A stretch of DNA of 64,000 nucleotides from Dendrobates tinctorius (Eukaryota): NCBI RefSeq assembly GCF_039654945.1, contig NW_027361784.1:31124001-31188000 (forward strand). The letters are read 5' to 3'. Made by a program: the position numbers and the translations under genes. Shown one piece after another: positions 39,098-63,654 of the stretch. Below the pieces are notes generated by a model. That model was not told the DNA's origin, made no database searches, and saw nothing but the letters and a program-made list of their open reading frames with translations. Positions within the stretch are counted from its first letter, which is position 1. Each line of letters starts with the position of its first letter.

Positions 39098-39752
39098 TTC
39101 AGGGGGTCAATCTCCCAGGCGTCCGTTTAGAGGCGCTCGTTCCCCAGCCAGGTCATGACGCAGTTTCAAAAAAGACATAAACGTTAACAAATTCTGCTCA
39201 GTGTCCCCTCAGTAACCGGGACGGGCTCTGCGGCCGCCTATAGCGAGGTGACGTCCCCTGAGGTCGGTGATGACGGGGCCGCGGCTGTGGGAGAAGACAG
39301 GGGGGCAGTGTCCTGGCCACTGTACCGGATTGCTGTGTCGTCGCAGCGGTCGCCTGAGATCCCGGTCCTGTCACACCACGGAGGGAATCAGCGGCCGTCA
39401 CTTTATCTGAATCTTTGCGGGGGGAAACTCCCGGGGAGAGTCTCTTACGCGTCAACCTTCGGTAAGTCTCAAATTTCCCTTTTTCAATCTCCTGCCTGTC
39501 TCTCTTTTCCACACCGTCAGTTGCCACAGTCCTCTCTCTGCCGCACGGCTTCCTCTCTCCTGTCAGGCTCTCTGCCAACTGCCACCTCAGCGCGTCCCCT
39601 GCTCCTTTTACCCTCGCCCCGCCCCCTGTTGCCCTGACAACTTCAGTCGCATGTCTCCCTTTGTAATCCCCCTGATGTGGTTTCTTCAACAACCCTGATG
39701 GCGGTCCCCCTGGTTCTAGCCCAATCACTGTATGGGGGTCCTCCTCCCCACA

Positions 39753-39764
39753 TTCTCCCACCCT
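39753..39764 (-). promoter_or_regulatory. Polypurine tract
   Basis: AGGGTGGGAGAA immediately before the 3' LTR on the minus strand. Confidence 0.8.
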
Positions 39765-39798
39765 GTAAGCTCGCCAGTCCTCGGGCGAGGGTGTTAGT

Positions 39799-42700
39799 CT
39801 ATTGAGATTGGACTGTAAAGGTGTTTAATATTTGTTGCCATACGAACTGGTCTTGTTCATACCGTTCGGGGGGTTTGCCGGCTGTTGACCGCTCGGAGCG
39901 TCTAAGTTCGACTGGGGTGGAATCTTCTGGGGTGGTGGACGTCGGTGAGCTGCAAGATGCCGGTGGGTTAATTGTGTCAACTGGCTCATTATTGGGTGGA
40001 GGGCCCTTGGGAACTGGAGGGAAATCCTCGTCGTCTGAGTTCCAGCATATGGACTCCGGTTCGGATGTCTTCGGGACGGGTTCCAGTTGCTTCGGGTCGG
40101 AAGAAATACACAGGCGTAACATATTACGATGCACAATGCGAGTGGGCAGTGTTTCATCCTGCTCGGGCTGTATTTCATACACAGGTCCTTCTGAATGGAT
40201 ACGGCGTAGTACCCGATAAGGACTCTCTTCCCAACGTGACTCCAGTTTATTCTGGGGGCGTTGATCTAGTACAAGCACACGGTCCCCGCTTTGGAGATGG
40301 GGAGGGGAGGTTGTATTCTTCCCGGGGTGTTCCCAGTCTTGAAGTTTGGTATGTACAATTCGGTGAAGAGTTTGCAACCTGTGGCGATGATTTCGGACCC
40401 AAGACGACACTCCGGTCCAGGGCCGAGGCTCTTCGGGGTCCAACTCTACCTCCGTGATCCCTTTACCCTCTCGTCCGAACAGCAGGAAATAAGGAGTATA
40501 GCCCGTTACTCGATGTACCCGATTATTATAAACCCACACTAATTCAGAAACATATTCAGGCCAACGAGCTTTCTTGTCACTCTCCAGAGTGCGTAGCATT
40601 TGAATCAATGTCCGATTAAATCGCTCACAAGCCCCATTCCCTTGCGGGTGATATGGTGTGGTCCGGGATTTATCAATCCCATAAAGATGATGTAGTTCCT
40701 CCATAACTTTCCACAAAAAACATGCTCCCTGGTCGGAATGTATGCGTTGAGGACAGCCGTACACTTGTATAAAATTTCTGCAAATTACGGAGGCGGCTGA
40801 CTCCGCGGTCTGGTCTCGAGTAGGGGTGACCACAGCGAATTTAGTGAAATGATCCACCATGACGAGGCAGTGTTCGTATCCCTGGAATGCGGGACCAATG
40901 TGCAGATAATCCACCGTCAAGAGCTCCAAGGGTTCTGAAGTCACAATCGTCTGTGTTGCGGCCCTCTGAGCAGGCGGTTTGGCCAATTCACATAAGCGGC
41001 AAGTACGACAAACTTCGTCCACAACAGTCGACAAGCGTGGGTGATAAACTTTCTGTTGTAACCATTGCAAAGTCTTTTTGACTCCAAAGTGGGCCCCTTT
41101 TTCGTGAGCCTCTCGAGCCAGTTCGTGTAGTTGAGCTCCGGGCGTAACCACCTGCCAAACAGTCGTTGAGGTTGTTTGCGAAGTGATCTTACGGTACAGT
41201 AATCCACTTCGGATAATCAGTCTCTCCCATTGTCGCAGCATCAGCGACAGGTCTTGGGTCAAAGCTTGTCGTTGAGTGTCAGTGGGTAATTGACCAGCAG
41301 CGACCCATTTCCGGAGAAGTCCAACTTCTTCATCTTCTTGTTGCTGTTGTATCCACTTATTACGAGATTGTTCCAGGATGCCCCTGTGGGCCTCTGGGGA
41401 AGATACTTTTGCATCAACATTGGTGAGCACGGCAGCGGTAAGAGCGAACGGTATTTCCTCTCCTTCTAATTCTTCGTCTCGATTCTGTCCAGGAGTTGTA
41501 TGTCGAATCCTAGAGAGAGCATCTGCATGAACATTCTCGGCCCCTCTTTTGTAAATAATCTTGTAATTGTACTTTGCCATTCGGGCCACCCATCGCTGCT
41601 CCAAAGCCCCCAACTTGGCGTTTTCCAAATGAGCCAGTGGGTTATTGTCAGTTCGCACTACCACCTCGGAGCCCGCTAGGTACTCTGCGAATCTCTCCGT
41701 CATAGCCCACACCACTGCGAGGAGCTCGAGCTTAAAAGAGCTGTAATTGTCAGGGTTACGCTCGGAGTCATGGAGTGAACGGCTTCCATATGCGATCACC
41801 CTTTCCCGGCCATCCTGAACTTGTGACAACACAGCTCCTAGCCCGTGAAGACTCCCGTCAGTGTGCAGGATGAACGGCTGAGAAAAATCCGCATAAGCCA
41901 ACACTGGGGCATCCGAGAGTGCAGCCTTGAGATCTCGGAAGGCCTCTTCCTGAGGGTGTTGCCACTGGATTTTTCGCCCATTGGCCCCAGCGGGAGCCCC
42001 CTTCAGCAGGTCATGTAGGGCTCGAGCTCGACATGCAAAATTCTTTACGAAACGACGGTAATATCCAGCTAACCCCAGAAAAGCCCGCACGTCTTTCACC
42101 GTCTCGGGGGTAGGCCATTCCTGGATAGCAGCAATCTTCTCCCGGGATGGCCTCACACCTTCTGCCGAAACGACATGACCCAGATACTCAATCTGAGAGC
42201 GAAATAGGTGACATTTCTGAGGCTTCACCTTCAACCCGTACTTTTGCAGCCGGCTGAGTACCTGTCCCAACCGCTTCAGGTGGTCCTCGAAGGAGGCGGC
42301 ATAGACGATGATGTCGTCCAGGTAGATCAACGTGGCCTCAAAATTGAGATCCCCTAGACATCGCTCCATCAATCGCTGAAATGTCCCGGGGGCGTTGGCC
42401 AGCCCGAATGGCATTCGATTAAACTCAAACAGTCCCATGGGCACTATGAACGCCGTCTTAGCTCTGTCCTCTTCTGACATAGGCACCTGCCAGTACCCAC
42501 TGGCCAAGTCCAGGGTCGAAAAATATGTTGCTTTACCCAATGCAGACAGAGATTCTTCTATGCGGGGCAGTGGGTATGAGTCTTTAATAGTGCAAGCATT
42601 CAATTTACGATAATCCACACAGAATCGTAGTGTACCATCTTTCTTCCGAACCAACACGATGGGGGCCGCCCAAGGGCTTTGACTTTCCCGTATCACCCCT

Positions 42701-43929
42701 TTTTGTAGCATCTGAGCCAGCAAAGTTTTCACCTCCTGATAGAGTTGTGGCGGGATCTGTCGATATCGTTCTCGGATAGGGGCCGCTCCTGCTGTGGGGA
42801 TCTCATGAGTGATGGCGGTGGTACACCCAAAGTCGTCCTCATGACTAGCAAATACTTCATGGTACTGTCCCAGCAATGCTTTTACTTGTGAAAGTTGGGC
42901 CGCAGTTAGTCCAGAAAGCTCGGCCCGCATCTGCTCCAAAATATTTCGGCCCTTCTCTTGTGTCGAGACTTCGTGGGCCTGTAGGGTTCGTATTGTTTCC
43001 TCCCCGGGATCCTCGGGGTGTACTCGTAATTGAACCGCAGCAGCGGGCAGCACTTCTTCTAGAGGCTTTACTAGTTTGGCCAGTACAGTCCGTGCTTTCA
43101 GAATGATATCTCGGTCTTCAAGGTTAACGCAGCGGACCAGGGCGGTTCCTTTTCGCACCGTAGCGAGGGAACGGGCCACCAGTATGCCAGGAGGTAAGTG
43201 CTCTGAGTGACACGGCTCCACCTGCACCTCTACGCCTTCCAAAGGTATCGGGGCCCGAATTGGCAGGGCCACCACTGTCTGTCCAGGAGGCAGCACAAGC
43301 AGGGGTGCCGCTGTCGCGATGACCTTGCCCAGAGCCTCACCCTCCTGGCAGTCCCGATGCACCCGCGCACCTCGCACCAGCTGCTGGAATACCTGTCCCT
43401 GAGCTGTGCGAGAACCCCACTGCTTCAGTGTCCTTTGTGTGGGATCATTAAGCAACAGGTTACCAAACTCTTTTAAAATATTCATGCCTAGGGTGACGGG
43501 GTGTCGTTGATCAGCTTCTCCTTGAGTCAGCACCACCCCTCTGCGGCCGAGGGGTTTACCGCACAACGTCACCTGCACCCACACTACCCCGGCAACCGGA
43601 ACCGGCAGTTGGTTGGCGGCTACTAGTCTAATCATGGGCCCCCACTGAGGCCTTGCTGCCTCCGGAAAGTTTTGTTGAAAGTACGCTGCGGGCATAGTGG
43701 TTACTTGTGACCCCGTGTCCACCAGACACCGGACGGCCCGGCCCTCTACTTCTGCCCAAACTTCAGGACACTTTGCTACCAAATCTTCGGGACTTCCACC
43801 ACCCCTAGTTGTGGTTTTCGGCTCCGAGCGGCGTCCCCCCAGCCCGGAGCCCTTTAGTTTAATGGCCGCCGGGGTGGGTATCTCCCACGCCGCGGACACT
43901 CTCGGGCGAAGTGGCCTGGTTCTCCACAC
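39799..43929 (-). CDS. pol: Gypsy Pol polyprotein (protease, RT, RNase H, integrase), probably expressed by -1 frameshift from gag
   Basis: Uninterrupted 1376-codon ORF: LVDTGS, LRFCVDYRKLN, MPFGL, YLDD, TDGS/ELLA/TDNNPL, H..H..CRTC, VDHFTK/SDQG/ERFNRTL. Confidence 0.96.
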   Translation of the reverse strand: MWRTRPLRPRVSAAWEIPTPAAIKLKGSGLGGRRSEPKTTTRGGGSPEDLVAKCPEVWAEVEGRAVRCLVDTGSQVTTMPAAYFQQNFPEAARPQWGPMIRLVAANQLPVPVAGVVWVQVTLCGKPLGRRGVVLTQGEADQRHPVTLGMNILKEFGNLLLNDPTQRTLKQWGSRTAQGQVFQQLVRGARVHRDCQEGEALGKVIATAAPLLVLPPGQTVVALPIRAPIPLEGVEVQVEPCHSEHLPPGILVARSLATVRKGTALVRCVNLEDRDIILKARTVLAKLVKPLEEVLPAAAVQLRVHPEDPGEETIRTLQAHEVSTQEKGRNILEQMRAELSGLTAAQLSQVKALLGQYHEVFASHEDDFGCTTAITHEIPTAGAAPIRERYRQIPPQLYQEVKTLLAQMLQKGVIRESQSPWAAPIVLVRKKDGTLRFCVDYRKLNACTIKDSYPLPRIEESLSALGKATYFSTLDLASGYWQVPMSEEDRAKTAFIVPMGLFEFNRMPFGLANAPGTFQRLMERCLGDLNFEATLIYLDDIIVYAASFEDHLKRLGQVLSRLQKYGLKVKPQKCHLFRSQIEYLGHVVSAEGVRPSREKIAAIQEWPTPETVKDVRAFLGLAGYYRRFVKNFACRARALHDLLKGAPAGANGRKIQWQHPQEEAFRDLKAALSDAPVLAYADFSQPFILHTDGSLHGLGAVLSQVQDGRERVIAYGSRSLHDSERNPDNYSSFKLELLAVVWAMTERFAEYLAGSEVVVRTDNNPLAHLENAKLGALEQRWVARMAKYNYKIIYKRGAENVHADALSRIRHTTPGQNRDEELEGEEIPFALTAAVLTNVDAKVSSPEAHRGILEQSRNKWIQQQQEDEEVGLLRKWVAAGQLPTDTQRQALTQDLSLMLRQWERLIIRSGLLYRKITSQTTSTTVWQVVTPGAQLHELAREAHEKGAHFGVKKTLQWLQQKVYHPRLSTVVDEVCRTCRLCELAKPPAQRAATQTIVTSEPLELLTVDYLHIGPAFQGYEHCLVMVDHFTKFAVVTPTRDQTAESAASVICRNFIQVYGCPQRIHSDQGACFLWKVMEELHHLYGIDKSRTTPYHPQGNGACERFNRTLIQMLRTLESDKKARWPEYVSELVWVYNNRVHRVTGYTPYFLLFGREGKGITEVELDPEEPRPWTGVSSWVRNHRHRLQTLHRIVHTKLQDWEHPGKNTTSPPHLQSGDRVLVLDQRPQNKLESRWEESPYRVLRRIHSEGPVYEIQPEQDETLPTRIVHRNMLRLCISSDPKQLEPVPKTSEPESICWNSDDEDFPPVPKGPPPNNEPVDTINPPASCSSPTSTTPEDSTPVELRRSERSTAGKPPERYEQDQFVWQQILNTFTVQSQ

Positions 43930-44768
43930 TCATAACACCGGGCCGGTAGAGATTGACCACCTCGCGGAGAGCGTGACCCCCAGGGACCGGGATTAGCACT
44001 GGGTCGTCCAGTCTCCGGTTCGGTTCTTCTCTTTACTTCAGCCATCTCGCTCTTTATATTTTTCAATTCACGCTTCATCTCCTCCACCCATTGAGGTTCC
44101 TCAACTGTGTTCGAGGAGGCCTCCACACCTCGGACCTTCCCCACGGGGACCGCCATCCCCTGCTCTTGCTCCTGAACCCGTGCCTGACTTCCCACTTCTG
44201 AAAAGTCGATTTGGGGATTCATTCTGATCCGTTCCCTTAAAGCCTGCTTTATCAGTGGATCTCGCAGTCCAGTCACCAGTAGGTCACGTAGGGTTATGTC
44301 AACAGGTCCTACCCCTACCCCATCTTTTCTTTCAATAGCCGTATGCAACTCTTGGAGTACATTCATATACTGAGTAATCGTCTCCCCCTCTGCCTGCATC
44401 CGGCTAAACAGTCGGGTCCTTAACTCTCCCACATTAGTGGGATCCCCGTGGGTCTGTTCCACTATCTGCAACACCTTTTCAAAAGTGTTGCGGTGCCCCG
44501 GGGGTTTCAACATCACTGACCTCCGCACCTCCCCGTCTAGGGCCATGAGTGCCACTTCAGCTTCCAGGTCAGGGGTCATTGGGTGCATCCGAAAAAGCCC
44601 CCTCATCCTCTCTGTCCAGCTCCATAGCATAGTATTTGAGCCAGAGAATCTAGGCAGGTTGTTCAACATGGCCCCCAATGAGATGCTGGTACGGGGACCC
44701 TCATTATTTACAGAGCTTACAGCTCCCCCATGTTCGGGGCTACCACTGTCCGCGCTCGGAGACTGCAT
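43854..44768 (-). CDS. gag: Gypsy Gag (capsid plus CCHC zinc knuckle)
   Basis: 304-aa ORF with Q.EGETI..Y and CYECGEPGHFAREC; overlaps pol, which is in the -1 frame. Confidence 0.93.
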   Translation of the reverse strand: MQSPSADSGSPEHGGAVSSVNNEGPRTSISLGAMLNNLPRFSGSNTMLWSWTERMRGLFRMHPMTPDLEAEVALMALDGEVRRSVMLKPPGHRNTFEKVLQIVEQTHGDPTNVGELRTRLFSRMQAEGETITQYMNVLQELHTAIERKDGVGVGPVDITLRDLLVTGLRDPLIKQALRERIRMNPQIDFSEVGSQARVQEQEQGMAVPVGKVRGVEASSNTVEEPQWVEEMKRELKNIKSEMAEVKRRTEPETGRPSANPGPWGSRSPRGGQSLPARCYECGEPGHFARECPRRGRYPPRRPLN

Positions 44769-44784
44769 CCTGCCGACTACGCCA
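44767..44784 (-). promoter_or_regulatory. Primer binding site, tRNA-Ser
   Basis: TGGCGTAGTCGGCAGGAT, 2 nt after the 5' LTR, is complementary to the vertebrate tRNA-Ser(AGA/TGA) 3' end ATCCTGCCGACTACGCCA. Confidence 0.9.
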
Positions 44785-47669
44785 AGTGTAGGGTTCGAGC
44801 AGGCTCACAGGATGCAGTGACGAGACACGAGACTGAATGTGGGGTGAAATAAACTTTTATAAGTTTTAAAGCCGCAAGGGCTAAAACTGCTTAAATCAGA
44901 CAAAAGGGGAAACACTTATTTGTCCTCGCAGGGACTCGTAAAACAACATTAAAAAAAACAAAAAGGGTCCTTATTTTCTCTATAATACACTTAGCCTTCC
45001 GGGCGTCGCTCGAGTTCACGACCACTCAGGGGTTGCAGATGTGGCTGCCTTGTAATCCACGACTTCCCGGAAGGACTTGTGCTTGTCCAGCCCCGAAGAG
45101 ACCAGAACGATGGGGCGCAGCAGGCCCTTAAGAAACTGGACGGTGGGGCGCAACGGGCCCTGTAGTAACCGGAACGATGGGGCACAACAGGCCCTGAAGA
45201 AACCGGAACGATGGGGCACAACAGGCCCTGAAGAAACTGGGCGGTGGGGCGCAACGGGCCCTGAAGAAATGGGGTCGGTGGGGCACAACGGGCCCTGAAG
45301 AAGCTGGCACGGTGGGGCACAACAGGCCCTGAAGAAATGGGGTCGGTGGGGCACAACGGGCCCTGAAGAAGCTGGCACGGTGGGGCACAACAGGCCCTGA
45401 AGAAGTGGGGTCGGTGGGGCACAACGGGCCCTGAAGAAACTGTTCAGGGGGTCAATCTCCCAGGCGTCCGTTTAGAGGCGCTCGTTCCCCAGCCAGGTCA
45501 TGACGCAGTTTCAAAAAAGACATAAACGTTAACAAATTCTGCTCAGTGTCCCCTCAGTAACCGGGACGGGCTCTGCGGCCGCCTATAGCGAGGTGACGTC
45601 CCCTGAGGTCGGTGATGACGGGGCCGCGGCTGTGGGAGAAGACAGGGGGGCAGTGTCCTGGCCACTGTACCGGATTGCTGTGTCGTCGCAGCGGTCGCCT
45701 GAGATCCCGGTCCTGTCACACCACGGAGGGAATCAGCGGCCGTCACTTTATCTGAATCTTTGCGGGGGGAAACTCCCGGGGAGAGTCTCTTACGCGTCAA
45801 CCTTCGGTAAGTCTCAAATTTCCCTTTTTCAATCTCCTGCCTGTCTCTCTTTTCCACACCGTCAGTTGCCACAGTCCTCTCTCTGCCGCACGGCTTCCTC
45901 TCTCCTGTCAGGCTCTCTGCCAACTGCCACCTCAGCGCGTCCCCTGCTCCTTTTACCCTCGCCCCGCCCCCTGTTGCCCTGACAACTTCAGTCGCATGTC
46001 TCCCTTTGTAATCCCCCTGATGTGGTTTCTTCAACAACCCTGATGGCGGTCCCCCTGGTTCTAGCCCAATCACTGTATGGGGGTCCTCCTCCCCACACCT
46101 GTAGGCCTCTTTCAGGTTGATGGCTCTTACCCATGGGCTTCACAAAATTGCTCCAAATGATTCACTGTGCAGCGTCTTCGTAGACCTCGCCAATCACAAT
46201 TCAGCCAGATACAGTTAATGTTGGGACTAGCCCACAGTGGAAGGGGTTAGTGTTTTGGAAAGTGACAAAGATCCTGTTAGTTTTTCAGATAGGTTTGGGA
46301 GTGAAAAGTGAGCACAGCTGCATGAATGGGTGACTCTAAGTGAAAAGAGACTAAGGACAAGGGATAGCGTGATCCTAAAGAAAAGTTACAAACGAAACAG
46401 GGTGAATGTCCATAGAAGGGTTCTTTGATAGGATGCCGAGTCACGATCACCAGAGCTTGTAACACATAAGGTAACGAACCTAAGCAGGACTGAGTACAAT
46501 GGACTAGTGATGGTCCTGAGTGCAATGGCTCCAGGGTGCCTGTTGTGGAACAAATAGGATGAGGAACCGCTGAGCAAGTAAGGAGCCGTGCTGATCAGGA
46601 CTGTAGCGTTAAACCTGGGTGGTGGTGGAGTAGAGCGAAACAGTGTGCCTCACTAGCCCTGGAGTAAACTACAGAGGAAGGATACTGTGTCGAAAATGTT
46701 TCATACTGTAAAGGAAACGTTTATAAGGCTTTGTACCCGCTATCCCTTGTATATAGCACAAGTTACCGTTTGGTAAAGAGTTTATGTTTGGTGGTCTCCC
46801 TCTCTGAACTGTACAACATCTGGTCCCGGCACACCCACAACGCCAGTTCATGCAGCTTGCAGGAGCGTAATGCCCTCACAGCACAAGTCCACACACCCAA
46901 GTAGGACCCACAATTTCATGTAGTGCACCGGGGCGTAAAAGGAGACCGGTGACTCTCCGCTTTTACCGACCTGCACTACACTATCTCAGCTCACATTTCT
47001 CTTCAGTTCCAGATCCATTTTTGCAACAGAGCGGTTGCCCCGCTTCTCCACTTAGCATACCTTGCAGTGTCTCCTGTTCACTATGGATTGGCTATGGGGA
47101 TGACTCATGGACCACCATTATTTACGTGACGTGGAGCTTAGTATGCAGGACATGCGGCAAAGCAGCAGAGTGTATGCAAGGAGATGCAAAATGAGTTGGA
47201 AGAGGGTGTGAAGCCATGGGCATACCTAGAATGGGAACGTATGTGGCAGTGGCACTCGAGGCAGCTATAAAGATAAGACTATGGGTGACCGAACACACAA
47301 TATGATACTGGTAGGCTTGGACAGATATGAGAACCTGCAGAAAGATTCGGCATATCTATTTTCAGATTGCCGGTTCTTTTGTTCTTAGTGAGATAAGTCG
47401 CCAACATTGAAGAACACTGAAGTGATTGGCAGCGTGAGCGCTCCTGCGTAAGGAGGAGTCAGGAGAAACGTCTGTCGTCTGAAACATCCTTTGGGCGACA
47501 GGTAAGTTGGCAATTGGCAAATATGGCTTAAGGGCGAAAATTTTTTTAAAGAACATGGAAAACATAACGTGCAGATCGGGAGAATAATTCCATAATATTT
47601 CATACTGCATACATGATAGATGTCTCTGTAAATTTCTCATAGATGAAATGTGAAGATGTATTGTTTATA

Positions 47670-49882: not shown

Positions 49883-51232
49883 TCTACTCTGTCCTCCTTC
49901 TCCTAGACCCATCGTCTGCCTTCGACACCGTAGACCATTCCCTCCTGCTACAGACTCTCTCATCTCTTGGCATCACAGACTTGGCCCTATCCTGGATCTC
50001 ATCATACCTAACACACCGAACATTTAGTGTCTCCCTCTCACACACCACCTCCTAACCTCGCCCCCTGTCTGTTGGTGTTCCTCAAGGCTCTGTCCTAGGA
50101 CCCCTACTATTCTCCATCTACACTTTTGGCTTGGGACAGCTCATAGAATCCTACGGTTTGCAGTATCACCTCTATGCCGATGACACGCAGATCTACCTAT
50201 CTGGACCCAACCTCGCCTCCTTACTGACTGAAATCCCACTATCTCAGCCTTCTTCTCTGCTCGCTTTCTCAAACTGAACATGGACAAGACAGAATTCATC
50301 ATCTTTCCCCCATCCCCATCTCACTCTACCCCTCCACCAGACCTATCCATCAGCGTCAATGGCTGCTTTCTTTCCCCAGTCCTGCACGCTCGGTGCTTTG
50401 GGGTGATCCTCGACTCTGCGCTCTCTTTCAAACCACATATCCATGCCCTCGCCTCCTCCTGCCACTTCAAACTCAAAAATATTTCCCGGATCCGCTCATT
50501 CCTCAACCACGAAACCACAAAAACACTAGTGCATGCTCTTATCATCTCCTGCCTCGACTACTACAACCTCCTACTCTTTGGCCTCCCCTCTAGCACTCTG
50601 GCTCCGCTCCAGTCCATCCTACACTCCGCTGCCCGACTAATCAACCTGTCTCCCCGCTATTCCCCAGCCTCCCCCCTATGCCAGGCCCTTCACTGGCTTC
50701 CTATTGCCCAGAGGCTCCAATTCAAAACCCTAACCATGAAATACAAAGCCATCCACAACCTGTCTCCTCCATACATCTGTGACATGGTCTCTAGGTACCT
50801 ACCTGCACGCAACCTTTGATCATCTCAAGGTCTCCTTCTCTACTCCCCCCTTATCTCTTCTTCCCAAAAACGAATACAAGACTTCTCCCGTGCTTCCCCC
50901 ATACTCTGGAACTCTCTGGCGCAACACATCAGACTCTCACCATCAACGGAAACCTTCAAGAAGAACCTGAAGACCCACCTGTTCTGACAAGCCTACAGCC
51001 TGCAATGATCCTCGGTCTACTGAACCACCGCACGACCTGCTCTACCCTCTCCTACTGTATCCTCACCCATCCCTGTAGACTGTGAGCCCTCGCGGGCAGG
51101 GTCCCCTCTCCTTATGTACTTGTGTGTCCCTTGTCTTACACATGTTTATTATACTTGTCTATATTTCCCCTTTTCACATGTAAAGCGCCATGGAATAAAT
51201 GGTGCTATATAAATGCATAATAATAATAATAA
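49883..51232 (+). mobile_element. 5'-truncated L2 LINE (RT C-terminal half, 3' UTR, (TAA)n tail)
   Basis: [44 protein letters not shown]; ends tgtaaagcgccatggaataaatggtgctatataaatgca(taa)n. Confidence 0.94.
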
Positions 51233-51795
51233 TCTATCCTGAATCTGCCATTAACAGCTCAGCCCCAGCCCAGGGACATAATAATAATAAATGCAGGGGT
51301 TGCAATTGCACCCGTGTCCTGGAGCTTATGGGCCAAAAAGATTCCTTTGGCCTTTATGAAAAGACCTTTATTAATAAAGATCTGTTGTAATTGGGGGCCA
51401 CATTGGAGGTTTTGCATTGAGGCCCACGAGCTTCAAGTTACACCACTGGCTCAGCCTATTTATTTCAATTAGGAGGGCTAAATGGGTTGTCTCGTGAAGG
51501 CAACCCATTTTTACATACAATCAATTACTTTATTCTGTAGGTTCCCAATGTGCAGACCTGTAGAAGGGTCTTCCAAGCTTGAGCTCCCCACAATAACATC
51601 CATATGTCCTATGAAGACATATGGACATGGGTTTTCTTCAAGTACCAACCACTTTAGACCAGTTCGGACACTTTTTGAAGACCAACATGGAGGCAGCCAG
51701 AACCCAAAGACAATTGATCGTCATCTCATCCTGTCTGACTTATGACCAGCTTTGAAGAAATAACAGAGAGGACCCTAGTAGATAATGTGATTTGG

Positions 51796-53548
51796 TGTAA
51801 CGCTCGTGCCCTGACTGGTTGTTGCGAGCATGGGATTGTGGCCCCACTGTGCCACAAACAAGACTACTCTGGAAGGGGCGTGACTAAGCAACTACCTTGG
51901 TGTTCACCGGAGTCTCTGATGGTGAGGTCAGGCTGGTGCGGCAGGTAGCTTCCAGGTACCACTCCAGGGCGGTGTCTGGCTATAGCAGCTGATCCCACTG
52001 AGGGACTGAACACTGATAGCAGGTGCGGGCATGTACAGACGGGCACGACTGGTACTCTGGTGGGCATGGCTGGCACTCTGGCAGGCGGGTACGGCTAGCA
52101 CTCTGGCAGGCAGGCACGGCTGGCATTCTGACAGGCAGGCAGGCACGACTGGCACTCTGGCAGGTAGGCGGGCATGGCTGACACTCTGGCAGGAAGGCGG
52201 GCACAGCTGGCACTCTGGCAGGCAGGCAGGCACAGCCGGCACTCTGGCAGGCAGGCGGGCACAGCCGGCACTCTGGCAGACAGGTGGGCACGGCTAGCAG
52301 GCAGGTGGGCATGACTGTCACTTTGGCAGGTGGGCATGGACAAAAGGGACAGGAACTGACTCGGAGGGGACAAGAACACGGGCTGGTACGTGTGGTATAT
52401 GGAAGCAGGTAGGGACCTATTCAGACTGGAGAAGCTGGAAAAGATTAGGGAAGGACATGTACACAAACAGGTATGAGTAGTGTGTGGTAACAGGTAGGAA
52501 CCAGTTGAGACTGGAGAGACAGGAACTGGTAGGGTACGGAGCGGAAAAAGAGCAGAGCCGCATGGTGCGGAACCGCAAGGTGCGGAACAGGAGCAGATCT
52601 GCAAGGTGCTGAACAGGAGCAGAACCGCAGGGTGCGGAACAGAAGCAAAGCAGAACGGCAAGGTGCGGAGCGAGAGCAAAGCAGAACCACAAGGTGCAGA
52701 GCGAGAGCAAAGCAGAACTACAAGGTGTAGAGTGAGAGACAAAGCAGAACTGCAAGGTGCGGAGCGACAGGAATGCAGAACCGCAATGTGCGGAGCGAGA
52801 GCAAAGCAGAACTGCAAGGTGTAGAGTGAGAGCAAAGCAGAACTGCAAGGTGCGGAGCGACAGGAATGCAGAACCGCAATGTGCGGAGCGAGAGCAGAAC
52901 CGCAGGATGCGGATCGAGAGCAGAACCGCAGGATGCGGAGCGAGAGCAGAACCGCAGGAGGCGTAACAAGAGCAGAACCGCAGGATGCAGAGCGAGAGCG
53001 CAACAAAGTCGCAGGAGGAGAGACGACAAGGAAAGGCAACAGACAGGGATACGAATGGACACCACAGGTAAAGGACTTAGATCAGACAAGGTCAGGTACG
53101 GGACAAGGTACAGGAATAGAACACAGTCCAGACAAGGACGGACACGGGAACAAATAAAGGACAAGGACACAGGCCTGACTATGCAGCCCTCAGGGAGGCA
53201 GGAACACAAGACACATATAGCACAGTAACAGGTCTGGGAATGCAGCCCCCAGAGAAGGTGTAAAACAGGACAGGACCTGGCAACTCAGCAGCAAGGCACT
53301 GACTGAGCGAAATCGTTGATCAGGCATCCTCCAATGCCTTAAGCACCTGATGCCTCTTGGCAATTGGCTGGGGACACCTTAGGAAGGTGTACACTGTCTC
53401 TACAAGAACCAGAAGACCCAGCGCCTCTTAAGCATACAGCCAGGAAGTATGCAAAGACCAGGCAGGAGTCATGAGGTTTCAGAGCATAAGTAAGATGGTA
53501 CCTGATGGGAGATGGAAGCCATGCAGTGATGCTGACAGGGTTGTTACA
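51796..53548 (-). mobile_element. Solo LTR expanded by two internal minisatellites (~52020-52340, ~52555-53010)
   Basis: TGTAAC...GTTACA termini; flanks TTTGG / TGTGG give a 5-bp TSD with one mismatch. Orientation is inferred. Confidence 0.72.
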
Positions 53549-55099
53549 TGTGGCTTCAAATAGGCTCATCTCAATAAGGTCTAGTATTCTGATAAATCTT
53601 TATAACATCTTAGCTCCTCATGAATGAGTTCTTAAGTTTTTAAGTTAGTTTTTTTAGATTTACTAAATTTAGGTTATACATGGTTTACTTTAGTCTCCTA
53701 TCACTAATGTCTCCTCGACTAAAAATTGTACAGTAGCTAACCCCATGAAAAGAGAAAGCTCAATATTATTATCTACATACGGGTGACTGACATGGAATGC
53801 AAATGTTGACCAGGGAATATTCTATGGACGATTTAAGATTGTAGCATCCAGCCGGCCCAAAACTGGAATGAAATAGTGAACTGGACAAGATAATTGTCAC
53901 TTGTTTCGTTTCAGGTTGTCAGGTTCTAGATTTCTTTGTTAGCTCTGAAGATGAAGGATGACAGGTGCACCGCATAAGTCAATCACATTTCTTTGGCAGT
54001 AGAATTGCCCGTGCACCCTCCTGCCAGGGTTATGTCTTCACGGATGGCTTTTTTTTTGGGTGTACAGCTAGAGCCAAAGGAACTAAGGACCGTGACAAAT
54101 TATTCAAAGGGGCATCGTCGAAGAACAGACACCCAGACAATACATAAGTCTTGTATATACTGGAAGCCACTTGTAGCCCTGTCCTACGTGACCGGTTTCT
54201 CAAACTTTGTCTTGACAGTCCCAGATTGCTTGTCATATCCAACTCCGAGAGGCAATAGTATTTCACTTGGTGTCAAACAGATGTGACAATTTACAAGGAC
54301 TCCTTGGTAAAATAGAAACTGTCATACCTTATTGTAAACCAAGTTGAAGAGTGCCTACAGGTTGGAATACTAATCTCGGCTCTCAGCGACACTGTTTGAC
54401 TATAGGGACTTCTTGTCATGTTTTTGGTTTTAGGAGTTTATCAGGCATGGAAGTTATAGGCCAGGAATGTCCAACCTGCTGCCAGGGGGCCACATGTGGC
54501 CTTCAGTGCCATTCTCTGTGGCCCTCAACTATCTGCATATCGACATGTTTGTCTGGCTGTAGCTGCTGACATGAGTTATTCATGCCAAACATTAGAAGGG
54601 TGGCACAAGGGCAACAGCAGAGGCATAGCTTGGGGTTTAGTTCATGGGGCAGGATAAAACATCTGATCATGGCCCCTAACCAGGTTACCCTGACTACAAA
54701 TACAGTGTTGCACCCGAATAGTGAGTATAGGGGAACCTTGTCAGATGACTACTCGGGTACCGAAAATTACCATCCAATACAGAGCCGCTGCTGCCGTATG
54801 TGTCCCTATTACTGCACTTACTGTGTAGTACAATAGCAGCGCCAGTCTTACTGACCGACATAATAATGCCACCACTGTGCCCCTTTCAAGTTAAAATGCC
54901 TCCTTTGTGCCCCCCAGATAGTAAAATTGCCCTCTAGAAAAAATGAATGCCCAGTGCAAGTGCCCTAGAAAACAGTGTCCATATTTTGTCTACTAGAAAC
55001 TAATAATGTCCCGTGTGCCCCTTTGACAGTCACAATACCCTGAGTACCTTCAATAACAAGACGTGTCCAATTAACATTTAATAATGTTCCCTAAATCTC

Positions 55100-56100
55100 C
55101 CCCTATACAATAATGATGTCCCCTGAATCACCCCTGTAGAGTAATAATGTCCCCTGAGTCCCACTACAAACAGTAATAATGTCCCCTGAGTCTCTCCAGC
55201 ACAGCTCCTCTATACACAGTCAGCATGATGTCCCCACAGCTCCCTATACTCAGTATAATGCCCCCAAACTGCATAATGGCAATAACAGTAGTCTCCACAC
55301 TGTATGATGGGCCCACAGTAGTATACACTCTGTACTATGGCACCATTTGAAGCTTCTGTTCTGTATTATGACTCCACTTAGTAGCTCCCACACTGTGTGA
55401 AAGCCCCCTTAGCAGCTACCACTCTGTATGGGTGTGTTGTCTGCACCCCCTTAGTATCCCTTATACTGTATGAAAGCCCAGTTTACTAACCCTGACGCTG
55501 TATGAAGGTCCCACACTGTATGATGGTCCCCAAAATTTATGACGGTTCCCTTAATAGCTCCCAAGCTGTATAATGGCCTCTTTAGTATCCACATTCTGTA
55601 TGATAGACCCTCTTAGTAGCCCCTACAGCTGTAAAATGGCCTCTTTTGTATCATACACAATGTTGATGGACCCTCTTAGTAGCCCCTACAGCTGTACAAT
55701 GGCCTCTTTAGTATCCCCATTCTGTATGATAGACCCTCTTAGTAGCCCCTACAGCTGTACAATGGCCTCTTTAGTATCCCCATTCTGTATGATAGACCCT
55801 CTTAGTAGCCCCTACAGCTGTAAAATGGCCTCTTTTGTATCATACATAATGTTGATGGACCCTCTTAGTAGCCCCAAGCTGTACAATGGCCTCTTTAGTA
55901 TCCCCATTCTGTATGATAGACCCTCTTAGTAGCCCCTACAGCTGTACAATGGCCTCTTTTGTAGCATACACAATGTTAATGGACCACTTAGTAGCCCCAA
56001 GCTGTAATATGGACACATTAGTAGGGCCCATGCCTTATGATCACCCCCCTTAGTAGCCCTCACACTGTATGATGGACACCCTAGCAGCCTACATATTATT
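55100..56100. repeat. Minisatellite with ~30-bp subunit and 63-bp higher-order repeat (55570-55990), probably inside a non-autonomous hAT element starting near 54462
   Basis: gaccctcttagtagcccctacagctgtacaatggcctct... repeats; Charlie-like end caggaatgtccaacctg..gggccacatgtggcc at ~54462. Confidence 0.8.
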
Positions 56101-58318
56101 GATGGCTCCTACACGATATTAAAATGTAAAATATTGTACACACATATACCTTGGAGAGTCTGGCGGCAGGCGGCAAGGCACGGACGAACCAATATGGTGA
56201 CTGTCATCAAGGCATGCACTCGATGTCAGAGTTCCAACTCGGTTATGTTACCACATCGCTCAGCCTGAGACCTGCCCTTCTACAATCCAATTCCAAATTA
56301 GCCTGTGGCCAACAGAACGGAGAGCAGTAGTGCAGGTAGACTTAGTCGCCTCTTCCCCCTGCAGAGTAACTGTATTGGCAAGCTGTGGTTACCAATTCAG
56401 TTTAGAGTGGGGTCACTTCGGGTGGACCTCTCTGAGTCAGGGTCCTGGAGTGACCATCCCCTCTGTACTCCTGTTAGCTATGTTACTTGGAAAGAGGGAA
56501 GATGGGCAAATGCTAAGGGTATGTGCACGTAGAATCTTTGGGAACATGAGATTATACCAAAAGATGTCTGAGAAATCAATTAAAAAATTGCTTAAACATT
56601 TGTCTTGCTAATTTCTATAGTAAAATAACTAGCTGGCATCCAGTCTTTTGGGCATTTTTCTTTTGCTTCAAGTTTTGAAAAACGCCAGGGAGAAAAGAAT
56701 GTGCTGATTATCCGGATCCGCTCATTCCTCAACCATGAAACCACAAAAACACTACTGCATGCTCTTATCATCTCCCGCCTTGACTACTGCAACCTCCTAC
56801 TCTCTGGCCTCCCCTCTAGCACTCTGGCTCCGCTCCAGTCCATCCTACACTCTGCTGCCTGACTAATCCACCTGTCTCCCTGCTATTCCCCAGCCTCCCC
56901 CTATGCCTGGCCCTTCACTGGCTTCCCATTGCCCAGAGGCTCCAATTCAAAACCCTAACCATGACATACAAAGCCATCCACAACCTGTCTCCTCCATACA
57001 TCTGTGACATGGTCTCTAGGTACCTACCCGCACGCAACCTTCGATCATCTCAAGATCTCCTTCTCTACTTCCCCCTTATCTCTTCTTCCAACAACCGCAT
57101 ACAAGACTTCTCCCGTGCTTCCCCCATACTCTGGAACTCCCTGCCGCAACAAATCAGAGTCTCACCATCAACCGAAACCTTCAAGAAGAACCTGAAAACC
57201 CACCTGTTCCGACAAGCCTACAGCCTGTAATGATCCTCGGTCTACTGAACCACCGCACGACCTGCTCTACCCTCTCCTACTGTATCCTCACCCATCCCTG
57301 TAGACTGTGAGCCCTCGCGGGCAGGGTCCCCTTTCCTTATGTACTTGTGTGTCCCTTGTCTTACACATGTTTATTATACTTGTCTGTTGTGAGTTCATTT
57401 TCCCCTTCACTACTGAGGCCCGAGGAACTCCCTCTTCTGGTGAAGAAAGGTAGTGAGCCTGATTGTCAAACACCTGGGGCTGATGATGATGACTGGCTGA
57501 GTGGAGTTAATGACTGGATATAAGGCTGCCGACGCCCTTCTGGCCTGCGGGTGATTTCTCTGTGGACTTCTAGGAAACCAGTGTGATTCCTGCTCTTCTA
57601 AAGCTAAGATTTCTGCTTTGCCTTTTTGCATTAGTGTTTTGTTTTCCTTGCTTTTCTGGATTCTGCCATTCCCTGCTGGGGTGAGCTGAATCTCCTTTTG
57701 CCTGTTGCTCTATCTTCAGAATATTCCTGAGTACTGACATAGCTTTTTTGAAGCCTAGCGTCTTCAGGGCCTTTTTACTGTCAGTTTGTTGGCTCTTATT
57801 TTCTTAGGGTTTTTCACGGATTGCAGACAGCAGCCTTCCTGTCCTTTCCTATCTAAGCTAGCGTGGGCCCCATCTTTGCTCAGTCTATCTTTCTGTCTGT
57901 GTTTTGTTCTTTCTTCTTGCTTCACCGTCATTATATGTGGGGGGCTGCCTTTTGCTTTGGGGTCTGCTCTGGGGCAGTTTAGATTTCCCTTTCTGTCTTT
58001 AGGCTATGTAGTCCTCCGGCTGTGATCGAGGGGTCTAGGGCATCGTAGGAGCCCCCCACGGCTACTGCTAGTTGTGTTGATAGGTTCAGGGGTCTGCAAT
58101 CCGATAGCTGCCAACTTCTCTGGTTTTCTGGACTTAGCTAGCATTTCTATTTTTGCCTCCTACGGTGACTCAATCATAACAGAATCACCCGCCATACCGC
58201 AGATTCTAGGGTACTCAATAGCAGGAAAGAATTATATAAAAAAAAAAAAAAAAAAGGGGTGTGTATATTTTTTCCTCTATATCCCTGAGGCCGTAGTGGG
58301 AATTTTTTTTCTCTCTCA

Positions 58319-59359
58319 ATGGAGATAAAGCAATTGTCTGATCGTGTGGAGCAGCTCGCTGCGGAAGTGCAGGGAATTTCCACCTACCTTGCTCATTCAC
58401 ATGCTGCTGAACCAAAGATTCCTACACCTGATGTATTTTTTGGGGATCGGTCTAAATTTTTGAATTTCAAAAATAATTGTAAATTATTTTTTGCCTTGAA
58501 GCCTAACTCGTCAGGGAGCTCCGCGCAGCAGGTTAAAATTGTCATCTCTTTGCTGCGTGGCGATCCCCAGGATTGGGCGTTTTCTTTGAAACCAGATGAT
58601 CCTATTCTGACTAATGTGAACACATTTTTTCAGGCCTTGGGGTTGTTGTATGACGAACCTAATGCCATTGATCAGGCTGAAAAGACCCTGCTGGCATTGA
58701 ACCAGGGTCGTGATTCTGCAGAATTGTACTGTCAAAAATTCCGAAAGTGGGCAGTACTTACTACCTGGAATGATAATGCCTTGGCTGCTCTCTTTCGGAA
58801 GGGGTTGTCAGAAGCCATAAAAGATACTATGGTGGGATTTCCTGTTCCCTCTGGTCTTGACGATTCTATGTCTTTAGCCATTCAGGTTGATCGGCGTTTA
58901 CGTGAACGCAGAGCTGCACGAGAGGTGTTGCCACCTGTTGAACAGATGTCTGAACCTATGCAATGTGATAGAGTTTTTTCCAGAGAGCAGCGTCAGGAGT
59001 TTAGAAGGCGTAATAAGTTGTGTTTTTTCTGTGGAGATGCCTCGCATATTATTTCTGTCTGTCCTAAACGCGAGAAACGCTTTGCACACACGTTTTCTGT
59101 TGGTGGTGTTCAACAAAAGTTTCTTCTGGCTATTACTCTGATCTGCTCCCTGTCCACATTTTCCGCCAAGGCTTTTGTGGATTCGGGAGCAGCTCTAAAC
59201 CTAATGGACTTGGATTTTGCTAAACGTTGTGGATTTCCGATGACACCTCTGCAGACGCCTATCCCTTTGAGGGGGATTGATGCTACTCCTTTGGCTAAAA
59301 ATAAACCTCAGTTTTGGACCCAGGTGGTAATGCGGGTCGCCCCAGACCATCAAGTGTAA
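58319..59359 (+). CDS. gag: Gag plus protease N-terminal part, truncated by an insertion
   Basis: EPKIPTPD.F.GD, LRGDPQDWA, CFFCGDASHIISVC, FVDSGA. The stop codon comes from the inserted sequence. Confidence 0.9.
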   Translation: MEIKQLSDRVEQLAAEVQGISTYLAHSHAAEPKIPTPDVFFGDRSKFLNFKNNCKLFFALKPNSSGSSAQQVKIVISLLRGDPQDWAFSLKPDDPILTNVNTFFQALGLLYDEPNAIDQAEKTLLALNQGRDSAELYCQKFRKWAVLTTWNDNALAALFRKGLSEAIKDTMVGFPVPSGLDDSMSLAIQVDRRLRERRAAREVLPPVEQMSEPMQCDRVFSREQRQEFRRRNKLCFFCGDASHIISVCPKREKRFAHTFSVGGVQQKFLLAITLICSLSTFSAKAFVDSGAALNLMDLDFAKRCGFPMTPLQTPIPLRGIDATPLAKNKPQFWTQVVMRVAPDHQV

Positions 59360-59659
59360 GTGTAAGTGTGCGTGCGTAGCCCATTCACTATCTCCATCCA
59401 TCCTTCACTCCTGCAAGATGGCTGGACCTTCATTGTAAATACACCATTGTAAATACACACCTGTACTCTGTATCTCCCTCACCTCATTGTAGATTGCACG
59501 CTCTCACGAGCAGGGTCGTCTTATTTCGTCTTATTTTGCTTTAATTATTGTATTGTTAGCGTTGTTACTTATGACTTGTGTTTTGAAACTGTTAAACTGT
59601 AAAGCGCTGCGGAATATGTTGGCGCTATATAAATAAAGATTATTATTATTATTATTATT
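59355..59659 (+). mobile_element. L2-type 3' tail or L2-dependent SINE inserted in the protease region
   Basis: Ends tgtaaagcgctgcggaatatgttggcgctatataaataaag(att)n; flanked by ATCAAG at 59349-59354 and 59660-59665. Confidence 0.9.
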
Positions 59660-59661
59660 AT

Positions 59662-62600
59662 CAAGAAAATTGCAGGTTTTTGGTGTTACATAATCTGCAT
59701 GATACTATTGTTCTGGGGTTTCCCTGGTTACAAATTCATAATCCAGTTTTGGATTGGAAATCTGTGTCTGTGGTGAGTTGGGGTTGTCGGTGTGCCTTTA
59801 GTGAGGCTCCGGTGTTTTCCACCTCTCCTCAGTCGCATGATGTTCCTGATTATTTGGCGGACTTTTATGATGTATTTAGTGAGAATGAGTCTGCGTCTCT
59901 GCCTCCTCATAGGAGTTATGACTGTGCTATTGAACTGAGCCCGGGGTGTAAATTTCCCAAGGGTCGGCTCTTCAATTTATCTGTACCCGAGCACGAGGCT
60001 ATGCGATCCTATATTAAGGAGACGTTGGAGAAGGGTCATATTAGACCATCCTCGTCACCCTTAGGTGCCGGTTTTTTTTTTGTAGCCAAAAAGGATGGAT
60101 CATTAAGACCTTGTATTGATTATCGTGCTCTCAACAAAATTACTGTTAAATATCAGTATCCGTTACCCCTGATTTCTGATCTATTCTCCAGAGTTAAAGG
60201 TGCTTGCTGGTTTACCAAGCTTGACCTCAGGGGGGCGTATAATCTTATTCGCATTAAGCATGGGGATGAATGGAAGACGGCGTTTAATACTCCGGAGGGA
60301 CATTTTGAGTACCTGGTGATGCCTTTTGGGCTCACTAATGCCCCTTCTGTCTTCCAGTGCTTCATGAACGATATTTTCCGAGATTTTGTGGATACATTTT
60401 TGATTATCTATCTGGATGATATTTTGATCTTCTCCAAGGATTGGGATTCTCATGTGGAACATATTCGGACTGTGTTCCGGATCTTGAGGGAGAATTCCCT
60501 GTATGTCAAAGGATCTAAATGCCTTTTTGGAGTACAGAGGATTTCTTTTTTGGGATTTATTTTGTCCCCGTCAACTATTGAAATGGACCCAGCCAAGGTA
60601 CAGGCCATTTACGATTGGATTCAGCCCACTTCTTTGAAGGCCCTCCAGAAGTTTTTGGGTTTTGCTAATTTTTATCAGAAATTTATAGCAAAGTTTTCAA
60701 GTATTGCAGAGCCATTGACTGATTTGACTAAGAAGGGTGCTGATGTGTTAAATTGGTCTCCGGAGGCTGTTTCTTCCTTTCAGGAGCTGAAGCGAAGATT
60801 CACCTCCGCCCCGGTTTTGCGGCAACCTGATGTCTCACTTCCGTTCCAGGTAGAGGTGGATGCTTCTGAGATTGGTGCAGGAGCTGTTTTGTCCCAAAAG
60901 GATCCTGTAACATCTAAAATGAATCCCTGTGCTTTCTTTTCCCGAAAGTTCTCTCCATCTGAACGTAACTATGATGTGGGGAATCGGGAACTGTTAGCCA
61001 TGAAATGGGCATTTGAGGAGTGGAGACATTGGTTGGAGGGAGGTAAGCATCAAGTCGTGGTCCTCACTGACCACAAGAATTTGATTTACCTAGAGTCGGC
61101 GAAGCGCTTGAACCCTAGACAGGCTAGGTGGGCCTTGTTTTTTACACGTTTTGATTTTGTGGTTTCTTTTCTTCCTGGAACTAAGAATGTCAAGGCTGAC
61201 GCCCTCTCTAGGAGCTTCTTTGCTGATTCTCCTGTGGTGACCAAGCCTGCTACCATCTTAGGCGAAGGGGTAGTTCTTTCTACCATCTCGCCCGATTTGA
61301 GACGTGCTCTGGAAGAGTTCCAGGAGGACAAACCTGAGCGTTGTCCCAGTGGAAAGTTGTATGTTACTGACCAGTGGAAGAAGAGAGTGATGTCTGAAGT
61401 TCATTGCTCTGCTTTGGCTGGTCATCCAGGTATTTTTGGTACTAGAGATTTGGTGAGTCGGTCTTTTTGGTGGCCCTCCTTGTCTCGTGATGTCAGGAAT
61501 TTTGTGCAGTCCTGTGGGACGTGCTCCCGGTCTAAATCGTGTTCTCGCTTTAGTGGGTTGTTGATGCCTTTGCCTGTCCCCAAGAGGCCATGGACTCATA
61601 TTTCAATGGATTTCATCTCTGATATGCCTGTCTCTCAAAGGATGACTGTTATTTGGGTGATTTGTGATAGGTTCTCTAAGATGGTTCATCTTGTACCACT
61701 CCCTAAGTTGCCGTCTTCCTCTGAATTGGTGCCCCTGTTTTTACAACAGGTGGTTCGCTTGCACGGGATTCCTGAGAACATTGTATCTAACAGAGGAGTC
61801 CAGTTTGTGTCTAGATTTTGGAGAACTTTCTGTTCCAAGCTGGGAATTCAGTTGTCCTTCTCCTCTGCTTTTCACCCTCAGACCAATGGGCAGACAGAGA
61901 GAACAAACCAGACCTTGGAGTCATATTTGAGATGTTTTATTTCTGCTGATCAGAATGATTGGGTTTCATTTTTGCCCTTGGCCGAATTTGCTTTAAATAA
62001 TAGAGCTAGTTCTGCCATTTTGATGTCTCCTTTTTTTTGTAACTTTGGGTTTCATCCTCGATTTTCTTCAGGGCAGGTGGAGCCCTCTGCCTGCCCAGGG
62101 GTTGACACTGTGGTGGAGAGAATGCACCAGATCTGGGACCAAGTGGTGGATAAGTTATCTCTCTCCCAGGAAAAGGCCCAGCGGTTTTCCAACCGACATA
62201 GGACCATTGGTCCCCAATTTAAGGTTGGTGATATGGTGTGGTTATCATCAAAACATATTGCTATGAAGGTGGCTTCTCCTAAGTTTAAGCCTAGATTTAT
62301 TGGACCTTACAAGATTTTGGAGATTATTAATCCGGTCTCCATTCGTTTGGCTCTTCCTGTCACATTTAAAATCCATAATGTGTTCCATAAATCTTTGTTG
62401 AAGAGGTTTGTTGAACCTGTTATTCCGGGGGTTGCACCTCCAGACCCTGTATTGGTTGAAGGTAACATGGAATATGAGGTAGAGAAAGTACTGGATTCCC
62501 GTCTGGCTAGACGGAGACTCCAGTATTTGGTTAAGTGGAAGGGTTATGGTCAGGAGGATAATTCCTGGGTCTCTGCCTCTGATATTCATGCCAAAAGATT

Positions 62601-62823
62601 GGTGCGTGCCTTTCATCGGGCTCACCCTGATCGCCCTGGTGGCGTGGTTGAGGGTTCGGTGACCCCTCCTCAAGGGGGAGGTACTGTTGTGAGTTCATTT
62701 TCCCCTTCACTACTGAGGCCCGAGGAACTCCCTCTTCTGGTGAAGAAAGGTAGTGAGCCTGATTGTCAAACACCTGGGGCTGATGATGATGACTGGCTGA
62801 GTGGAGTTAATGACTGGATATAA
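59662..62823 (+). CDS. pol: Pol remainder: protease end, RT, RNase H, integrase, chromodomain
   Basis: VLGFPWL..HNP..DW, LRPCIDYRALN, YLDD, VDAS, TDHKNL, H..GH..C..C, ICDRFSK, ERTNQTL, YEVEKVLDSR..QYLVKWKGY..EDNSW. The integrase has SNRG where SDRG is expected. Confidence 0.94.
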   Translation, partial: QENCRFLVLHNLHDTIVLGFPWLQIHNPVLDWKSVSVVSWGCRCAFSEAPVFSTSPQSHDVPDYLADFYDVFSENESASLPPHRSYDCAIELSPGCKFPKGRLFNLSVPEHEAMRSYIKETLEKGHIRPSSSPLGAGFFFVAKKDGSLRPCIDYRALNKITVKYQYPLPLISDLFSRVKGACWFTKLDLRGAYNLIRIKHGDEWKTAFNTPEGHFEYLVMPFGLTNAPSVFQCFMNDIFRDFVDTFLIIYLDDILIFSKDWDSHVEHIRTVFRILRENSLYVKGSKCLFGVQRISFLGFILSPSTIEMDPAKVQAIYDWIQPTSLKALQKFLGFANFYQKFIAKFSSIAEPLTDLTKKGADVLNWSPEAVSSFQELKRRFTSAPVLRQPDVSLPFQVEVDASEIGAGAVLSQKDPVTSKMNPCAFFSRKFSPSERNYDVGNRELLAMKWAFEEWRHWLEGGKHQVVVLTDHKNLIYLESAKRLNPRQARWALFFTRFDFVVSFLPGTKNVKADALSRSFFADSPVVTKPATILGEGVVLSTISPDLRRALEEFQEDKPERCPSGKLYVTDQWKKRVMSEVHCSALAGHPGIFGTRDLVSRSFWWPSLSRDVRNFVQSCGTCSRSKSCSRFSGLLMPLPVPKRPWTHISMDFISDMPVSQRMTVIWVICDRFSKMVHLVPLPKLPSSSELVPLFLQQVVRLHGIPENIVSNRGVQFVSRFWRTFCSKLGIQLSFSSAFHPQTNGQTERTNQTLESYLRCFISADQNDWVSFLPLAEFALNNRASSAILMSPFFCNFGFHPRFSSGQVEPSACPGVDTVVERMHQIWDQVVDKLSLSQEKAQRFSNRHRTIGPQFKVGDMVWLSSKHIAMKVASPKFKPRFIGPYKILEIINPVSIRLALPVTFKIHNVFHKSLLKRFVEPVIPGVAPPDPVLVEGNMEYEVEKVLDSRLARRRLQYLVKWKGYGQEDNSWVSASDIHAKRLVRAFHRAHPDRPGGVVEGSVTPPQGGGTVVSSFSPSLLRPEELPLLVKKGSEPDCQTPGADDDDWLSGVNDWI

Positions 62824-63654
62824 GGCTGCCGACGCCCTTCTGGCCTGCGGGTGATTTCTCTGTGGACTTCTAGGAAACCAGTCTGATTCCTGCTCATCTA
62901 AAGCTAAGATTTCTGCTTTGCCTTTTTGCATTAGTGTTTTGTTTTCCTTGCTTTTCTGGATTCTGCCATTCCCTGCTGGGGTGAGCTGAATCTCCTTTTG
63001 CCTGTTGCTCTGTCTTCAGAATATTCCTAAGTACTGACATAGCTTTTTTGAAGCCTAGCGTCTTCAGGGCCTTTTTACTGTCAGTTTGTTGGCTCTTATT
63101 TTCATAGGGTTTTTCACGGATTGCAGACAGCAGCCTTCCTGTCCTTTCCTATCTAAGCTAGCATGGGCCCCATCTTTGCTCAGTCTATCTTTCTGTCTGT
63201 GTTTTGTTCTTTCTTCTTGCTTCACCGTCATTATATGTGGGGGGCTGCCTTTTGCTTTGGGGTCTGCTCTGGGGCAGTTTAGATTTCCCTTTCTGTCTTT
63301 AGGCTATGTAGTCCTCCGGCTGTGATCGAGGGGCCTAGGGCATCATAGGAGCCCCCCACGGCTACTGCTAGTTGTGTTGATAGGTTCAGGGGTCTGCAAT
63401 CCGATAGCTACCAACTTCTCTGGTTTTCTGGACTTAGCTAGCATTTCTATTTTTGCCTCCTACGGTGACTCATTCATAACACTTGTCTATATTTCCCCTT
63501 TTCACATGTAAAGCGCCACGGAATAAATGGCGCTATATAAATGCATAATAATAATAATAATTACTACTTTGAATCAGCCGCTGATGGCAAATGCTCCAAA
63601 CCAGGCACAATCCAGTCAAAAAGTTTAAAAAAAAAAACACTCACCAAGAGAAAC

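Follow-up and report, generated by a model that had tools for sequence, protein, structure and literature searches.

The chromovirus at approximately 57385-63481 (+) of the window, by which we mean the whole 64-kb stretch of DNA that was analyzed, very probably starts reverse transcription from the 5' end of its own RNA and not from a tRNA, as judged from sequence comparisons. This reading is favored because the pairing between the predicted RNA 5' end and the candidate primer-binding site (PBS) covaries, because five further families in the same genome pair their own 10-11-mers, because the partner of the PBS lies behind a TATA-like box, and because a tRNA-type control element is unpaired. 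The initial annotation had proposed such tRNA-independent self-priming, and the proposal is supported in that the complementarity is kept in young copies and covaries across subfamilies and families. The element is an addition to the recognized self-priming Tf1/sushi group, vertebrates included; the comparative support exceeds what a single copy gives, and strengthens rather than alters an accepted idea.

Anatomy of the element and its predicted primer/PBS duplex

The element was identified as a Ty3/gypsy chromovirus from the alignment of its LTRs and the order of its Pfam domains (Table 1). LTRs, gag, and then the order RT-RNase H-integrase are all present, and the integrase closes with a chromodomain that scores above cut-off (PF00385, E 4.7e-14). 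Pfam assigns retrotransposon gag and DUF4939 to the first frame, and RT, RNase H, integrase, SH3-like and chromo domains to the second. The two LTRs are 98.7% identical over a 798-bp alignment; the CA of the 5' LTR ends at 58181, making G58182 the first base outside. Neither of the polyadenylation signals AATAAA and ATTAAA was found in the LTR, and for this reason the R/U5 boundary was not placed. The window copy is probably not autonomous, because its gag-pol is interrupted. The interrupting insertion closes with an ATT repeat, and its end resembles a LINE-like tail at 63507-63542. The chromovirus itself is inserted in the 3' tail of a LINE-like repeat (flanks 56707-57384 and 63482-63561), an uninterrupted copy of which lies at approximately 50481-51250. 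Degenerate tandem repeats with units of 25-31 nt and 30-63 nt form arrays at 51930-53300 and 55000-56100.

Table 1. Features of the window and predicted primers of the related families F2 to F6.
Feature	Position	Strand	Remark
F2 relative, internally deleted, Gag ~46-50% identical	24127-27355	+	24182-24191 pairs with 24768-24777
F2 predicted primer GTTGGTGATA	24182-24191		window example
F3 predicted primer GTCTGAGATA			one copy
F4 predicted primer GCGTGATTATT			plus a variant
F5 predicted primer GCTTGAGTAT
F6 predicted primer GCGCTAGTGTA
Control, non-chromovirus gypsy element	38442-46097	-	TGG-type PBS; longest self-complement 5-6 nt
5' target-site duplication, 6 bp	57379-57384	+	second copy 63482-63487
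5' LTR, 797 bp, TGT...ACA	57385-58181	+	10 mismatches to 3' LTR
TATA-like box TATAAG, predicted promoter	57519-57524	+	spacing class matches related families
Predicted self-primer GCGGGTGATT, predicted RNA nt 1-10	57547-57556	+	T at -1, G at +1
Candidate flanking helix	57953-57967	+	partner in leader, 58199-58213; 15 pairs, 6 of them G-U
Candidate flanking helix	58041-58051	+	partner in U5, 58157-58167
Single G between LTR end and Watson-Crick duplex	58182	+	G-U with 57557 in window copy
Candidate PBS AATCACCCGC	58183-58192	+	exact complement of 57547-57556
gag (retrotransposon gag, DUF4939, CCHC motif) and start of protease region	58319-59356	+
Foreign insertion, ~0.3 kb, interrupting gag-pol	59355-59661	.	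borders approximate
pol: RT, RNase H, integrase, SH3-like, chromodomain	59662-62823	+	frame terminates within 3' LTR
Polypurine tract, 3 nt upstream of 3' LTR	62672-62681	+	read from sequence
3' LTR	62685-63481	+	second 10-mer copy at 62847-62856

The initial annotation had stated that no TGG-type tRNA PBS follows the 5' LTR, that the first ten bases from 58183 are instead the exact reverse complement of a site in the LTR, and that this site begins 28 nt after TATAA (57519-57523). Each of these statements was borne out with all its coordinates: no TGG follows the CA of the LTR, and the distance of 28 nt holds when counted from the first T of TATAA. The PBS position is thus complementary to the LTR stretch at the predicted RNA start, as in the Tf1/sushi group; it is not the PBS of the tRNA-primed class, which starts with TGG and is complementary to a tRNA 3' end. 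Within the window the predicted primer sequence occurs at 57547 and 62847 only, and its complement at 58183 only. An eleventh pair, the G-U pair T57557/G58182, had also been claimed; it is present in the window copy but proved not to be constrained across family copies.

Chance complementarity is one alternative, given that an LTR of approximately 800 bp contains many 10-mers. When the LTR was dinucleotide-shuffled 5000 times, 10 of the shuffles gave a match of at least 10 Watson-Crick pairs to the 18 nt beyond the LTR. Among 4460 internal 18-nt segments of the element, 4 (all from one site) match the LTR equally well at any position, and none matches the 28-nt stretch behind the TATA box that well, the longest such match being 7. 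The comparison of families described below disposes of this alternative.

Folding of the RNA from the primer into the leader (57547-58260), a check that had been put forward with the original proposal, gave a minimum-energy structure in which nt 1-9 pair with the PBS. When the fold extended from 57547 to 60 nt past the PBS, the pairing probability was 0.92-1.0 for nt 1-9, 0.43 for nt 10 and 0.27 for nt 11. The region 57547-58260 as a whole is no stabler than shuffles (z 1.02). Tf1 is described as requiring two duplexes that flank the PBS, a structure termed the 'pretzel' (10.1101/2022.12.06.519325). Two candidate flanking helices were picked on the window copy. In an alignment of 40 rows, 98% of cells are paired in the first (57953-57967/58199-58213) and 89% in the second (58041-58051/58157-58167); all changes are one-sided, and the partners selected by RNAalifold are different ones. 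Scans of the flanks of the window copy for two such duplexes did not rise above shuffles (p 0.80 and 0.25).

Conservation and covariation of the pairing within the window family

The window's own genome was searched for family copies, yielding 2688 first-look candidates (a rough figure), of which 40 were scored; 30 of the loci, the window copy included, are 97-100% identical. All 10 Watson-Crick pairs are kept in 23 of these 30 young copies, with a G-U pair in 1 and one mismatch in 6. Loss of complementarity in other young copies had been named in the initial annotation as an observation that would count against self-priming, and the copies instead preserve it. The primer is intact in the 3' LTR of both mismatched copies that were checked (L008 and L013), which points to decay after insertion as the source of the mismatches. 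Pairs 1-10 hold nearly without exception in an alignment of 40 rows, and over all 11 pairs 99% of cells are paired, as compared to 27-58% when the pairing is slid.

Older subfamilies were added by protein searches, giving 76 copies, 63 with both sides readable and 13 without; L012 and L110 were excluded from the family covariation count. Alignment of family copies for covariation, which had been recommended at the outset, gave a positive result, in that pair 3 switches between G-C and T-A and the five further families pair different letters. The 63 scorable copies have at pair 3 the states G-C (39), T-A (18), A-C (4), G-T (1) and C-C (1), and the mixed states T-C and G-A occur in none of the 63. 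The swap from T-A to G-C marks a sister subfamily and is a single event on the gag tree (support 73/76), not 18 events, so the covariation at pair 3 counts once. At pair 11 the same copies have T-G (55), G-G (3), T-A (2), C-G (2) and C-T (1), and the base following the CA of the LTR remains G regardless of nt 11. The base after the PBS (58193 in the window copy) is C in 75 of 76 family copies; it is also C in families F2, F3, F5 and F6, and G in F4a. The genomic base preceding the predicted start is mostly T, although the base adjacent to the PBS is C. It is conceivable, purely as an idea, that the C after the PBS would face the cap position.

Covariation demonstrates pairing, not function. 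The duplex could be selected for a structural role in packaging, dimerization or translation control, or the primer could originate in the 3' R copy (62847-62856) or come in trans from another RNA, the 10-mer being present in the 3' LTR as well. We consider these readings unlikely: the duplex ends 1-2 nt from the CA of the LTR in every family, where minus-strand synthesis must begin, its far end coincides with the predicted start site, and no other primer site is present. Priming by the element's own RNA 5' end is the reading that we prefer.

Related families and a control element in the same genome

Forty further stretches were examined together with the two window elements. Five further families (F2-F6) were recognized in the same genome; their Gag is approximately 29-51% identical to that of the window family, and their RT, where pol exists, approximately 56-61% identical. 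Each of the five pairs its own, different 10-11-mer. The predicted primers across families are the window primer, GCTGGTGATT and those listed for F2-F6 in Table 1, each with its own exact PBS complement. This complement begins 1-2 nt beyond the CA of the family's own LTR, the duplex of F4 starting one base later than the first base after CA. At least 10 pairs are found in 34 of 43 distinct copies outside the window family (F1). When eight PBS sequences were compared with eight LTRs, each matched its own LTR over 10-13 nt and the LTRs of the others over 4-9 nt. The observed match length was reached by 0-10 of 1000 shuffles for each of the seven representatives other than the window copy, and the duplex lies at the same position in all families. 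The cross-family matrix rules out chance complementarity, to which we assign a negligible probability.

When the fold was left unconstrained, primer-PBS pairing was low or reduced for 5 of 11 representatives (near 0 in L165, L132, L137 and L147; 0.78 in L127). In the F4 copies L127 and L136 the gag start codon lies just a few bases past the PBS, and because gag adjoins the PBS in this way a leader-side helix in F4 would need coding sequence. The F2 element of the window (24127-27355) lacks pol, in a family for which there were 7442 first-look candidates (a rough figure). Because no full-length F2 copy fetched had pol, F2 may be a non-autonomous self-priming family. The control gypsy element (38442-46097) is very young, with LTRs that are 99.9% identical.

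A potential concern is that a fragment of a host tRNA (a tRNA half, for example) or some other host small RNA primes at 58182-58199, the match to the LTR being incidental. Half-tRNA priming is described for some copia lineages (PMC6317226). The initial annotation had regarded a tRNA matching this site as grounds for rejecting self-priming; a mature tRNA 3' end is excluded because no TGG follows the LTR, and for fragments the comparison covered three isotypes (Lys, Ser and Cys) plus ARAGORN 'Stop' calls, with a longest shared word of 5-7 nt among the three isotypes. A tRNA fragment would hardly explain why seven or more distinct PBS sequences each match the LTR they belong to but not those of the others, and within the window family one pair, pair 3, switches in step. 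Priming by a host small RNA is for these reasons very improbable, and self-priming remains the preferred reading.

The context of the predicted start was compared with mouse CAGE data, in which functional TATA boxes are reported at -29 to -32 with a PyPu start, a box at -28 being marginal and accompanied by alternative starts downstream (PMC1779604). In one representative of each of the six families, the partner of the PBS opens with a G preceded by T, and a TATA-like box lies 28-31 nt upstream, counted from its first T; the reading of this context was not clean for the two F4b rows. The TATA-like box of the window family sits at -28 relative to the predicted start. The predicted TATA spacing and T/G start across families fit the mouse rules, and we infer that transcription starts at G57547. 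Assembled contigs beginning at 57546 were considered as evidence for the start and dropped, a branch point between subfamilies explaining them.

Proposed priming mechanism and relation to known elements

Tf1 reportedly uses an 11-nt primer from the 5' end of its own mRNA, which is said to be released by an RNase H cut. As compared to this length, the window element has a Watson-Crick duplex of 10 bp and a one-base spacer. The RNA of the window element would start at G57547 and, folding back, pair its first 10 nt with 58183-58192. If the element works like Tf1, the RNase H activity of its RT would cleave where the duplex ends, and the 3' OH so released would be elongated by RT into U5, yielding minus-strand strong-stop DNA. 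Cleavage would probably occur no later than nt 10, because G persists after the CA irrespective of the identity of nt 11. A primer of at most 10 nt, not 11, is also probable because the eleventh G-U pair is not constrained across copies.

Approximately half of Tf1 cDNA is reported to carry a PBS copied from the primer (PMC11042837). If the PBS of the window element is likewise copied from the primer, priming with 11 nt would replace G58182 by A. Of the 57 copies with T at nt 11, just 2 have A at this position, which makes a primer of no more than 10 nt the more likely. Were the primer copied back into PBS DNA, as in Tf1, both bases of a pair would change in a single step, and by this analogy such copying could account for the switch from T-A to G-C without intermediates. 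A broader proposal, which we regard as possible but doubtful, is that frog sushi-group elements use a variant of Tf1 priming. In this variant a primer of at most 10 nt, cut before the edge of the LTR is reached, would leave the cDNA end with 1-2 spacer bases, and a retained capped primer would serve to rewrite the PBS in each cycle; the window family would in addition have changed its integrase spacing from 5 to 6 bp. If this proposal is true, PBS rewriting would give one-step, double-sided base changes and the near-invariant cap-facing C (75 of 76 family copies, five of six families).

Self-priming is described as shown for Tf1 and as common to, or implicated in, the Tf1/sushi group from fungi to vertebrates; in these papers the experimental proof is that for fission-yeast Tf1, vertebrate elements being called implicated or covered by the statement for the group, and all three credit Butler et al. 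2001 (PMC6317226, 10.1101/2022.12.06.519325, PMC4600332). Self-priming has also been predicted, from like complementarity, for the Tcn1 clade of mosses and fungi and for the TAR copia lineage (PMC6317226); these occur in other host groups than the window element, and TAR belongs to another superfamily. A literature search conducted mostly without subscription journals found no direct report of a self-priming chromovirus in Xenopus or other amphibians, nor of a 6-bp target duplication in a vertebrate chromovirus. The six families with their differing, matched primer/PBS pairs, together with many young copies, form a natural compensatory series, in which start and cut sites should be easy to map from tissue RNA. 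Self-priming elements would presumably also lack the tRNA site at which tRNA-derived small RNAs are aimed.

The window element shares with the Tf1/sushi group a chromodomain integrase, a CCHC Gag, the lack of a tRNA PBS, and a PBS complementary to the predicted RNA 5' end. The predicted fold-back geometry of 5' end and PBS is the same as in Tf1 and Tf2 of Schizosaccharomyces pombe and Tj1 of S. japonicus. In an RT tree of 22 rows, which used 14 of 120 listed homologues and did not include Tf1 and sushi-ichi, the window element falls in a clade of fish and frog elements (97/95) beside a fungal element (100/99), with plant and algal rows outside this grouping, a topology compatible with the cluster of fungal and vertebrate elements expected for the Tf1/sushi group. 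RT-RNase H homologues are mostly from frogs and fish among the 120 matches listed, and every Gag homologue with a name comes from the poison frog Ranitomeya imitator; a frog is accordingly the likely host. The only solved-structure match of Gag is PEG10, which we take to be a sushi-derived gene.

Gag and pol share one frame in the window family, and stop-free frames of at least 1360 codons are present in 6 of 12 full-length copies. Tf1 and Tf2 likewise have a single ORF, whereas members of the group outside fission yeast are described as mostly using a -1 frameshift, and the fission-yeast elements are described as lacking the CCHC motif that the Gag of the window element has (10.1101/2022.12.06.519325). 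The fungal members described make 5-bp target duplications (PMC4600332, 10.1101/2022.12.06.519325), in contrast to the 6 bp of the window family: the 32 copies examined include 19 with perfect 6-bp duplications, 4 with one mismatch, 3 with none and 6 not scorable. Among 19 copies of the related families, 13 have perfect 5-bp duplications, 3 have one mismatch and 3 are not scorable, with none of 6 bp.
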